From the NCBI GenBank assembly GCA_043769645.1, contig JAYVJC010000042.1, positions 990 through 64,989 of the forward strand: a stretch of DNA of 64,000 bases, in the 5' to 3' direction. The DNA is from Candidatus Altimarinota bacterium. Its GTDB lineage: Bacteria > Patescibacteriota > Gracilibacteria > BD1-5 > UBA2023. The position numbers were made by a program, and so were the translations under genes. Positions 10,131 through 32,628 of the stretch are shown one piece after another. Every line of letters begins with the position of its first letter. Position 1 is the first letter of the stretch. Below the pieces are notes generated by a model. The model had not been told where the DNA came from, ran no database searches, and was given only the letters and a program-made list of their open reading frames with translations.

Positions 10131-10481
10131 CTATAACAGATTCACTCCGAATTTCCTCATAACAATTGCCAAGGAGAGAAAAAGAATAATCGTAAGCAAG
10201 GCGGAAGCTATAAGGGCCCAGGTGAACCCGAGTTTTGTGAGGAGCGTCGGGAATAAGTAAAACATCGGGAGCGTCGGAAGCACGTACCAGAAGGTATAGT
10301 ACGCATGATTCGATATCTTCTCGAGTGGCGTCTTCTCTACGTACATCCAGATCATCACGAGGATGGTGACAAGAGGTAGTGAGGCGATAAGCGCTCCGAC
10401 TCGATCATATCGCTTCGCGACTTCGGAGATGAAGACCACCATACCAGCAGTGAGGAGGTACTTGAAGAGAAGGTAGTACAT
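10131..10481 (-). CDS. DUF3147-family small membrane protein
   Basis: Track ORF of 116 aa with a true TAG stop and four hydrophobic segments. The sequence (..VSEVAKRYDRVGALIASLPLVTILVMIWMY..FWYVLPTLPMF..) matches my recollection of DUF3147 proteins. Confidence 0.6.
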   Translation of the reverse strand: MYYLLFKYLLTAGMVVFISEVAKRYDRVGALIASLPLVTILVMIWMYVEKTPLEKISNHAYYTFWYVLPTLPMFYLFPTLLTKLGFTWALIASALLTIILFLSLAIVMRKFGVNLL

Positions 10482-10546: not shown

Positions 10547-10577
10547 CCCTCTCTTTTCGGAGAGGGTTAATTTTTTT
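10547..10577. repeat. CCCTCTC-loop-GAGAGGG hairpin element with T-run
   Basis: Stem CCCTCTC / GAGAGGG followed by TTAATTTTTTT. The same hairpin core occurs twice inside lysS (30894-30916, 30939-30961). Confidence 0.6.
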
Positions 10578-10699
10578 ACTGATAGCCGGTTGGAGGGGAA
10601 AATTCAAAAAGTTACTAGATTATTTCTTAAATCTTTATTAAAAATAATTTGACTTTTATAATAATAATTTATAATAAATATATATTAATTCTTTCAAAT

Positions 10700-11125
10700 A
10701 TGAATCAACAAAGACTTAACCAACCACACATACAATCCAAAATCAGGAAATCTGGAGGGATGGGGACAATAAAAGAAGCAACAACAAGAACACGAGTTAA
10801 TGATATGTTAGAAGCAAAAGGTTGAACTATCGAGTTACAACTTCAGGACATGATAGAAAGGCCATCGTTATATGCCCATTTGGATGATTCCCGTCATACA
10901 CTCTTATGACTAGCATTGTTAGAAGCTGATAGAAAATGAATAGTTTGACCAAAAAATAGTCACAGACCGAAATTAGATAAACTTAGAGAACTAGAAAGAG
11001 CTGCTGGAGTAGCTATCGGAAGAATGAAAATTGAAATTGCAAATACACTTCCGGTATGAATAGAGAGAATTAGATTTATGACGATTTGAAAGGTGAAAGT
11101 TACATTGTGAGGAGAGCTTATTTAG
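10700..11125 (+). CDS. Hypothetical protein (141 aa after recoding)
   Basis: ATG 10700 to TAG 11123-11125, open only if 7 TGA are read as sense. The translation looks protein-like (..LELQLQDMIERPSLYAHLDDSRHTLLGLALLEADRKG..). No family recognised. Confidence 0.4.
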
Positions 11126-30540: not shown

Positions 30541-32628
30541 ATGCCGACTCCAAACTACTCCAGTGAAACCCTCGATCGAATGCGCAAACTCGAGCGTATC
30601 CGTGCTCTTGGAGTGAATCCTTTTGCTACGCGATTCGATGCGAGTTCGAGTATCGGAGATATCCTCTTGAAGTATCCTTCCAGTATAGATCCGACACTCC
30701 AAGAATCCAAAAATACAATCTTTCGAACTATAGAAACTATTATCCCAGCTCCGACGGATGAAGTGGCTATCGCGGGTCGAGTGATGCTCCATCGAAGCTT
30801 CGGGAAGATCTGCTTCGCGACTATTTCTGATGGAACGGGACGACTGCAGGTACTGTTCTCAAGGGAGAATTGCTTTATCAACCTCACCCCTAACCCCTCT
30901 CCTGAAGGAGATGGGGATTCAGGAGCGGTCTCTTTACTCCCCCTCTCTGGAGGAGAGGGGGCTGGGGGGTGAGGTGGTGATGAAGTATCCGCCTACAAAT
31001 TCGCCGAGAAGCTCATCGACCTCGGGGATTTTATCGGGGTGCGGGGTGAGCTTTTTTATACGCATAAATGAGAACTCACACTCTTTGTGAAAGAGTTTAC
31101 CTTTCTTACGAAGGCGATTCGTCCCCTTCCTGAGAAATTCCACGGGATAGAAAATGAGGATGAACGATTTCGAAAGCGGTACCTCGATATGACTATGGAT
31201 GATGAGCTTCGTGCTGTATTCATACGAAAATCCAGATTCTGGAAAGCAACTCGAGATTTTCTCGTATCGAAGGGATTCCTCGAAGTCGAGACTCCGACCC
31301 TCGAGCATACGACCGGTGGAGCGGAAGCTCGACCATTTGCCACGCATCACAACGACTACGACGTCGATGTATTCCTACGTATATCGATCGGTGAGCTCTG
31401 GCAGAAACGTCTGATGGCCGGAGGATTTCCGAAGACCTTCGAAATCGGACGCGCCTATCGAAATGAGGGATCGAGTCCAGATCACCTACAAGAGTTTACC
31501 AATATGGAATTCTACTGGGGATATGCAAACTATGAGGCCGGGATGAAACTCGTCGAAGCCATGTACCGATATATCGCTATGGAAGTCTATGGAAAGACGG
31601 TATTCACCGCTAGAGGACATACCTTCGATCTCGCGAACGAGTGGTGACGCGTTGATTATGTGAGTGCAGTACTCGAGAAAACGGGTATTGATATCCTCTC
31701 GGCAACAGATGGTGAAATGCAACAAAAACTCACCGAGCTCGGGGTTAAGTATGATGGTACCAATCGGGAACGCCTCACCGATACGCTCTGGAAGTATACG
31801 AGAAAGCAGATCTCGGGACCCGCATTCCTGATCAACCATCCCTCTCTCATCTCACCTCTGGCGAAAACGAGTGAGAAAAATCCTGGAACCGTTGAACGGT
31901 TTCAGGTCATTCTAGGAGGATCCGAAATCGGAAATGGCTACAGTGAGCTCAATGACCCCCTCGAACAACGCGCTCGATTCGAGAAACAACAGGAGATGCT
32001 TGCGGCTTGAGATGACGAGGCGATGATGCCAGACTGGGATTTCGTCGAGATGCTCGAACACGGGATGCCTCCGACCTGCGGATTCGGATTCGGAGAACGA
32101 CTCTTTGCCTTTCTCGAGGATAAACCCATACGTGAAGTGCAGTACTTCCCATTTATGAAGCCAGTCGGAGAATCACTTTCCATCAAAGAATCTGAGGAAC
32201 GATACCGTTCCAAGAAGATTATCGTGATCGCTGATGAACATCATCCCGCAGGTCCTGGAGCTGTAGCGAATGCTATCGGACAACTCGGCATTGAGATCGG
32301 CATGTTTTCAGAAAACAAACTCGCAGAAACAAAGATCCTTCATGATGCCGATGGGCGTGTTCACTATGCGGATGCCTACTATGGGATGTCGAACCTCTCA
32401 GGAACTCACGAACAAATGGCACACTTTGTGATGAAATGTCATACAGCCAATATCCAAGTTTTTGATTTTTCAGAAATCATGAGAAAAGCTCACTCCGATA
32501 AGCAAATGCTCGAGGGATATAGGTGACTCTCGACCGAAGATATCAGTTATATTGCAGTTGGAGCTGTCATTCCTGCTGACTTCGAGAAAGAATGGCTCGC
32601 AGGACTTAAATTATTCGGGAAACAATAA
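30541..32628 (+). CDS. lysS: Lysine--tRNA ligase (class II) with an internal repeat insertion and a C-terminal extra domain
   Basis: Track ORFs 30541.., 31087.., 31660.. and 32023.. are all in one frame, separated by TGA. Motif 1/2/3 regions are present (FLEVETPTL; [26 protein letters not shown]; GFGFGERL). Stop is TAA 32626-32628. Confidence 0.95.
30882..30974. repeat. Palindromic G/C-clamp element inserted in frame in lysS (31 codons)
   Basis: The outer arms CCTCACCCCTAACCCCTCTCCT and AGGAGAGGGGGCTGGGGGGTGAGG are imperfect reverse complements. Two inner hairpins have the form CCCCTCTC-loop-GAGAGGGG. It is translated as [28 protein letters not shown]. Confidence 0.75.

Follow-up and report, generated by a model that had tools for sequence, protein, structure and literature searches.

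In-frame palindromic repeats of BoxC/PIT type in the lysyl-tRNA synthetase gene of a recoded Gracilibacteria genome, and the association of their arms with DUF559 genes

The lysS gene of a Candidatus Altimarinota bacterium carries within its reading frame a 93-nt palindromic element that, by its architecture and core sequence, is classed here with the BoxC/PIT-type repeats. The gene, which encodes a class II lysyl-tRNA synthetase (LysRS), lies in a window of 64,000 nucleotides (contig JAYVJC010000042.1, positions 990 to 64,989 of the forward strand), which is the whole stretch of DNA that was analysed and to which unlabelled coordinates refer. The element is probably an inverted pair of BoxC/PIT/TM-type units that lacks a nuclease and that was spread by a system of repeat arms and DUF559 genes in the manner proposed below. 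Such arms are physically associated with DUF559 genes in related genomes, where they flank the gene on both sides and point outward, as the arms in lysS do. The source genome (G000) has a size of 1.20 Mb in 56 contigs, with 41% GC and 92.6% completeness, and all other G-numbers denote comparison genomes.

The palindromic element within lysS

A preliminary description of this DNA had placed a 93-nt element in the OB-fold (oligonucleotide/oligosaccharide-binding fold) region of LysRS, and had noted its imperfect inverted termini, its two internal hairpins, and a GC content and self-complementarity that contrast with the surrounding coding sequence. These observations were confirmed, and the interpretation attached to them was partly supported. 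The element reads, in order, CCTCACCCC-TAA-CCCCTCTCC-TGAA-GGAGATGGGG-22-nt spacer-CCCCCTCTC-TGGAG-GAGAGGGGG-CT-GGGGGGTGAGG. Its outer arms of 21 nt are 81% complementary, and the repeat search recovered both inner hairpins as well. Its GC content is 63% compared to 41% for the genome. As RNA, it is predicted to fold into one long hairpin of -69.5 kcal/mol, compared to a mean of -45.8 kcal/mol for shuffled sequences (z = -6.3), none of which, out of 200, was as stable. It is also the sole strongly folding GC island of the window. The features of the gene and of the element are as follows.

30541-32628, + strand: lysS, class II lysyl-tRNA synthetase, 695 amino acids under genetic code 25, with five in-frame TGA codons read as Gly
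30882-30974, + strand: whole element, putative inverted pair of triplex-hairpin (TM/BoxC-type) units, 93 nt, 31 codons
30882-30890, + strand: left outer block CCTCACCCC, complement of the G-rich mirror ("third-strand") block
30894-30916, + strand: left hairpin CCCCTCTCC-TGAA-GGAGATGGGG, from the repeat search and nhmmer
30917-30938, + strand: spacer of 22 nt, unique to the lysS copy, at the position held by the DUF559 gene in the full cassettes of relatives
30939-30961, + strand: right hairpin CCCCCTCTC-TGGAG-GAGAGGGGG, 9 bp, perfect
30964-30974, + strand: right outer block GGGGGGTGAGG, mirroring the purine arm in the right hairpin, 10 triads
30970-30972, + strand: in-frame TGA (Gly144), a stop in this frame if the standard code applied
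30975-30986, + strand: GGTGATGAAGTA (GDEV), similar to GGGGATGAGGTG (GDEV), the right end of the element that G023 has at this site

The left outer block pairs with positions 30964-30974 in the long hairpin, and nine consecutive purine-motif triads are possible for it (G-rich strand). The GGTGATGAAGTA stretch may be a remnant of an older right end, given that nine of its 12 bases are identical to those of GGGGATGAGGTG.

The host gene and its genetic code

The LysRS protein matches the Pfam profiles tRNA-synt_2 (E 1e-69), OB-fold and, at the C-terminus, DUF2000, and the OB-fold match ends exactly at the insert, at profile position 37 of 75. It was the single class II match in a search of the genome, and a profile search for class I LysRS in G000 gave nothing above cut-off. 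The element-bearing lysS is the only LysRS gene detected in G000, and the earlier statement that the element sits in an essential gene holds in this form.

Code 25 was adopted for G000 because it yields a continuous LysRS of 695 residues, because the TGA codons at residues 177 and 490 align with conserved Gly, because a tRNA with anticodon UCA is present, and because the best named LysRS homologues are labelled Candidatus Gracilibacteria. Under table 11, the gene is interrupted by TGA codons and falls into five pieces, and this reading was rejected. The genetic code also bears on the element itself, whose reading frame is open owing to the use of TGA for Gly at its one TGA codon. The translation first quoted for the element is therefore correct under code 25 and fails otherwise. 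Tolerance of the insertion had been put down to a length that is a multiple of three. The copy is indeed in frame, but its length is not sufficient, since it needs a code in which TGA specifies Gly.

An AlphaFold2 model of LysRS was built from 91 aligned sequences, with a mean predicted local distance difference test score (pLDDT) of 74.9. In this model, the insert sits between OB strand 3 (residues 101-107 and 112-114) and the OB helix (151-158), and its residues, ~115-147, have a pLDDT of ~50 compared to >90 on both flanks. This fits a disordered surface excursion, in keeping with the flexible loop that had been suggested. From the open frame, the element would appear to be translated as a disordered, Gly/Pro/Ser-rich excursion leading from OB strand 3 to the OB helix.

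The model is poor in the DUF2000 part, which occupies residues 558-675 (window 32212-32565) at the C-terminus (Pfam E 1e-8). LysRS proteins of similar length, ~650-695 aa, occur in G001 and a few more distant relatives, while most relatives have proteins of ~530-560 aa. The same DUF2000 fusion is found in P0102, a metagenomic LysRS homologue.

A dispersed family of in-frame copies

Further copies were sought in G000 with a strict arm pattern, CCTCACCCC-N-CCCTCTCC, and with a looser one, and shuffled genomes and a reversed pattern served as controls. The strict pattern recovers seven left-type arms in G000 and none in shuffled genomes. The looser pattern recovers 11 arms at seven loci, also compared to none in shuffled genomes, and the reversed pattern finds nothing in any genome. 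The prediction that the genome would hold further copies is thus borne out, and all loci save lysS lie on other contigs. The arms form five inverted pairs and two solo units, distributed as follows.

C42 (the window): LysRS, pair
C16: GT1/GT4 glycosyltransferase, pair
C26, site a: NAD-dependent DNA ligase (LigA), pair
C26, site b: NAD-dependent DNA ligase (LigA), pair with a decayed right arm
C37: RluD-type pseudouridine synthase (PseudoU_synth_2), opposite strand, pair
C6: Cys-rich protein, no Pfam match, solo unit
C7: MiaB, solo unit

Every one of the seven loci lies within a long open reading frame (ORF) of code 25, in frame and free of TAA and TAG, and the copies use three of the six possible frames. 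There is one TGA codon in the used frame of the lysS copy and there are two in that of the rluD copy, so that both would end the protein under the standard code. The internal spacers of the arms-only copies have no sequence in common. Target-site duplications, which the preliminary description suggested looking for, and direct repeats of any kind were not seen at the junctions of the G000 copies.

It had also been stated that the hairpin core of the element recurs between genes at 10547-10566. A stem of 7-8 bp is indeed shared, but this site was rejected as a copy of the family. It consists of the stem CCCTCTC-TTTTCG-GAGAGGG followed by a run of T, has a terminator-like score, and lacks the outer CCTCACCCC block. 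Its nhmmer match (E = 0.0095) covers the hairpin part only, and it lies between the divergent ORFs 10131-10481 (- strand) and 10649-11125 (+ strand).

A very stable hairpin (-69.5 kcal/mol) in an essential mRNA might suggest that the segment is never translated, being removed at the RNA level in the manner of an intron, skipped over by the ribosome or excised by protein splicing. This is highly improbable. Rfam gave no intron family for the element, only sub-threshold microRNA-like hairpin matches that were dismissed as meaningless, and a Pfam search found no Hint or intein domain in LysRS. An intein or self-splicing intron was rejected on these grounds. Moreover, all seven copies, together with the orthologous copies of relatives, keep the frame and avoid TAA and TAG, which would be pointless if the segment were removed.

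Association of the arms with DUF559 genes

DUF559 is a putative nuclease that is Vsr-like, with a PD-(D/E)xK fold. The closest solved structure to it is 3HRL, an uncharacterised "endonuclease-like protein". Of 151 genomes sampled across the class, 68 have DUF559 and 22 have arms. Among the 35 DUF559 genes of arm-bearing genomes, 12 have an arm within 200 nt, compared to 0.17 expected (P ~1e-18).

In the miaB gene of G019, the protein runs ...KWNID, then LTPTLSQKERG-DUF559-PSLSGRGVGGEG, then TFITPFRELL. A cassette occupies the miaB site in G019, G000 and G001, and a solo unit occupies it in G002. Additional in-frame cassettes of arms and DUF559 are found in recG of G002, G025 and G052 (the last a standard-code genome), in fmt of G173 and in mnmA of G029, and free-standing ones in G098, G088, G163 and G107. 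On contig C24 of G098, a degraded DUF559 gene lies between two arms, and this arrangement looks like a decay intermediate.

G000 itself has three DUF559 copies, of which one is in frame in miaB, one is in frame in a rarA-like gene and one is free-standing after folD. The miaB copy (G000:C7:7704-8402) is an in-frame cassette of ~230 aa with a complete DUF559 and inverted repeats of ~35 nt, TCCACCCCGCC...GCACCCCTCAAWGAGGGG. It is common to G001 and absent from G005 and G014. The second copy (G000:C4:3628-4782) is an in-frame cassette placed after ...ERYPG in a rarA/mgsA-like AAA+ gene, and G014 has one at the same position. The third copy (G000:C48:1750-2260), downstream of folD, has G/C-rich hairpin flanks and one TAG inside the domain match, and may be a pseudogene.

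The preliminary description had called the element MITE/REP-like (MITE, miniature inverted-repeat transposable element). What stands of this is that it belongs to a dispersed family of palindromic repeats, and what falls is the membership in either class, given the missing target-site duplications, the differing spacers and the lack of a transposase partner. A classical MITE would be a deletion derivative of an insertion sequence, moved by a transposase through cut-and-paste or copy-paste. Terminal inverted repeats, small size, dispersal and a patchy distribution in relatives (0 to 21 arms per genome) are all features that such an origin would produce. It is nevertheless quite unlikely here. 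None of the copies has a target-site duplication, the internal spacers are unrelated between copies, and the core of the arms, being the same as that of the E. coli motif treated in the next section, looks constrained rather than recently copied. In addition, Y1 transposase/RAYT (PF01797) had no match in the 92.6% of G000 that is estimated to be present, and the gene between the same arms in relatives is DUF559 and not a transposase. Membership in the MITE class and in the REP/RAYT class was rejected accordingly, the former for the lack of direct repeats and the identity of the gene between the arms, and the latter for the lack of PF01797.

Resemblance to BoxC/PIT and TMECO repeats

BoxC/PIT repeats have been known since the 1990s, and their sequence is conserved across distant phyla. 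To our knowledge, neither their function nor their way of spreading is agreed upon. The unit described here, as read on the G-rich strand, is CCCTCTCC-loop-GGAGAGGG-TT-GGGGTGAGG, a hairpin and a G-rich mirror block. The TMECO consensus is CCCTCNCCC-N3-6-GGGNGAGGG-N3-GGGNGAGGG, with 23 copies in E. coli K-12 that are always intergenic and sometimes form inverted pairs (Holder et al. 2015, PMC4666352). The E. coli sites have been tied to local rearrangements and deletions, with no link to a mobile element (PMC4666352).

In both cases, a pyrimidine block, a loop, a purine block, a short linker and a G-rich mirror block follow one another. The core 8-mers are the same, with CCCTCTCC/GGAGAGGG/GGGTGAGG here and CCCTCNCCC/GGGNGAGGG/GGGNGAGGG in E. 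coli. Both kinds of repeat are dispersed and G/C-rich, occur singly or in inverted ("palindromic") pairs, and go along with local sequence change. They differ in that the E. coli copies are intergenic and without a mobile-element link, while all seven loci here are in genes and the arms of relatives bracket DUF559. When one substitution is allowed per TMECO block, two of the 11 arms match (C16 and C37) and those of lysS do not. The blocks depart from the consensus solely in how many G or C stand at their ends.

Nine of the 11 arms have 8-10 uninterrupted purine-motif triads as counted by a script, and the other two belong to a GAGAAGGGG/GGGGATGAGG variant with 10 triads counted by eye; triplex formation was scored here from sequence potential alone. 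The outer block and the hairpin block each have a variable base, and in a set of 183 arms (29 genomes) these two bases combine as CC (147), TT (31), TC (5) and CT (0). This covariation matches a mirror constraint, but it is suggestive only, as two subfamilies separated by descent would give the same table. Taken together, the architecture and the core sequence would make the element a BoxC/PIT-type unit that is not a strict TMECO member.

Gain of the element and turnover of the loop

LysRS genes were aligned from 30 related genomes. G001, which belongs to the same genus and has a LysRS 91% identical, is without the element and has an ordinary loop, VNGELKTELTGETEP / CSLSVNGELKTELTGETEPVSAYKF, that is common to several other genera. 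The G000 loop consists of CFIN, the 31 element codons and GDEVSAYKF, and the region has 150 nt compared to 93 nt in G001. Since G001 lacks the element, the alignment dates its entry into the OB-fold loop of lysS to the G000 lineage, after the split from G001. A gap opposite the element had been expected among orthologues. The element is indeed absent from G001, but relative to this empty allele it stands in place of 12 ancestral codons, with a net gain of 19. As judged from the aligned alleles, the event is a replacement of 12 codons and not a simple insertion.

G023, from another genus (75% identity), has a pair of the same family at the same left junction of lysS, and G014 has an unrelated palindrome in this loop. 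A recent transfer from a G023-like donor was rejected: the flanks of the G000 element match G001 and not G023, and no co-conversion tract can be seen. The element might also be thought an artefact or chimera of the metagenome-assembled genome, which is a draft of 56 contigs in which repeats can misjoin sequences. This is barely credible, however, as lysS continues in frame on both sides within a contig of 83.7 kb, independent assemblies (G023, which is P0001, and P0002) carry an element of the same family at the same codon, and G000 has six more in-frame copies.

Among the metagenomic homologues, ~37 of ~67 Gracilibacteria-type LysRS proteins have an insert in this loop, and these inserts fall into at least six unrelated families. 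A maximum-likelihood tree for which the loop was masked out requires two origins of the TM pair and eight changes in the VILNE family. Near-identical LysRS proteins, separated by branches of ~0.01, bear different inserts, and therefore the content of the loop turns over far faster than the enzyme. Such near-identical alleles differ by a patch made of the insert and a few flanking codons. These comparisons show the LysRS loop that joins OB strand 3 to the OB helix to be an insertion hotspot.

Other loci have histories of their own. The LigA element of site a is common to G000 and G014, and at this site G001 has a palindrome of another family. G000 and G023 have the rluD element in common, while the ligA-b, glycosyltransferase and miaB-1 copies are found in G000 only. 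Where copies occupy the same site in different genomes, they differ by whole codons. Strict arms total one in G001 compared to 11 in G000. The one in G001 (G001:C27:16969-17015, L055) forms a minimal palindrome, FSPHPLTPSPLGEGQGEV, within the uvrC reading frame, and it is faced by a one-mismatch arm on the other strand, four bases off.

Other families of palindromic inserts are found in the same loops, namely L004 (G014 lysS), L033 (G001 ligA) and L044 (G023 glycosyltransferase), and further ones are found in the proteins P0004, P0008, P0012 and P0015. Example families are VPVILNEVKDP...SSQAQNDG, SRHSDEGRIQ...SFVPQDDG and HCEERSNP...SPRSARDD. Because other families occupy the same loops, the in-frame habit belongs to several unrelated hairpin repeats.

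How the element may have spread

It is proposed that the lysS element began as a full cassette from which an internal deletion would have removed the nuclease, or else that its two arms would have been mobilised in trans. DUF559 would make nicks or cuts in the DNA, either close to or at the structured arms or in empty sites, after which repair or recombination would copy the element into permissive loops of conserved genes. Selection would retain only those copies that are in frame and free of stop codons.

Several points weigh against this proposal. In the arms-only copies, the spacers have too few bases to reveal whether they descend from DUF559, and translation of the insert is read from its open frame. 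The strict TMECO consensus has no match in G000. None of the three DUF559 copies of G000 is flanked by arms of the lysS subfamily; all three are flanked by other subfamilies of G/C-rich hairpins in the opposite arrangement, and on this account a matched DUF559 partner in G000 was rejected. We know of no nuclease activity or target of DUF559. Finally, recG was struck at three different positions in three genomes, and strict single-site homing was rejected for this reason.

The main rival explanation dispenses with a dedicated enzyme. In it, the G/C-rich motif would stall replication, template switching or short-patch recombination by the repair systems of the cell would follow, and DUF559 would be a passenger or a frequent neighbour. 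Such a process would sit well with the link of TMECO to rearrangements and deletions, and to no mobile element, in E. coli (Holder et al. 2015, PMC4666352). It would also suit an element that replaces ancestral codons instead of adding to them, LysRS alleles that are nearly identical save for an insert and a few flanking codons, and a genome in which no DUF559 bears matching arms. However, the 12 of 35 adjacency and the symmetric arms, oriented as in the arms-only pairs, are hard to reconcile with a passenger. Unrelated palindrome families use the same loops, and structure alone leaves the pairing of one family with DUF559 unexplained. Spread without an enzyme is thus considered unlikely, although less so than the other alternatives, and spread by arms and DUF559 remains the preferred explanation.

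A broader proposal, which is advanced tentatively and with somewhat less than even confidence, is that BoxC/PIT arms and DUF559 together form an unrecognised selfish element, a nuclease cassette with structured and possibly triplex-forming ends.

Comparison with other repeats and mobile elements

Homing endonuclease genes in introns and inteins include the Vsr-like EDxHD family (I-Bth0305I). The cassettes described here resemble them in that a small nuclease gene lies in housekeeping genes, at the same site in non-sister lineages (miaB and rarA), and in that decayed remnants without nuclease occur. However, there is no intron or intein, and the DUF559 cassette is unable to remove itself and is read through as host protein. 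Moreover, its sites are not unique, as seen in recG, and no homing activity has been demonstrated for DUF559.

MITEs and the RAYT-associated REP/BIME repeats are likewise short, structured, dispersed and non-autonomous. The present family differs from them in that target-site duplications, a transposase or RAYT, and a conserved internal sequence are all missing.

Rickettsia palindromic elements (RPE) reportedly lie in frame in protein-coding genes, as Ogata et al. are said to have described in 2000. They have been reviewed (PMC3184786; PMC10969869). As in RPE, the repeats studied here are palindromic and in frame in protein genes, essential ones included. The extra peptides of RPE are thought to be placed on the protein surface; here, seven of seven copies are in frame and the lysS copy falls in a low-pLDDT loop amid well-predicted OB-fold elements. 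In contrast, the two belong to unrelated sequence families and phyla, so that the analogy is functional and no membership is claimed. At 81-125 nt, the present units are the shorter ones, RPE have no described nuclease partner, and tolerance here depends partly on the use of TGA for Gly.

Significance

Palindromic repeats in frame in genes, as in RPE, and the BoxC/PIT motif itself were known already. What is new is a BoxC-type unit in frame in essential genes of a recoded lineage of the Candidate Phyla Radiation (CPR), the recurrent use of one LysRS loop as a landing site, and arms that bracket a nuclease gene. A literature search found no published description of in-frame BoxC-type repeats in CPR or Gracilibacteria, and no work tying DUF559 to these repeats, to mobility or to homing. 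The arms that bracket DUF559 provide a concrete candidate for the mobility machinery of BoxC/PIT repeats and a first hint of the function of DUF559.

For the annotation of these genomes, the findings are a warning, as inserts and code 25 together break gene calls and domain matches, such as that of the OB-fold profile in LysRS. For the proteins, they indicate that loops of core enzymes (LysRS, LigA, MiaB and RecG) turn over fast through the insertion of repeats, which inflates and diversifies proteins in very small genomes.

If the selfish element proposed above is real, it would install itself in frame in the loops of housekeeping genes and be translated through, with neither intron nor intein, and it would decay to arms-only pairs and solo units, the lysS copy among them. 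The use of TGA for Gly would open one more frame of the arms, and this would help to explain the many in-gene copies in recoded Gracilibacteria. The BoxC/PIT repeats that lie between genes in E. coli, in cyanobacteria and in other phyla would then be fossils or non-autonomous relatives of this element.

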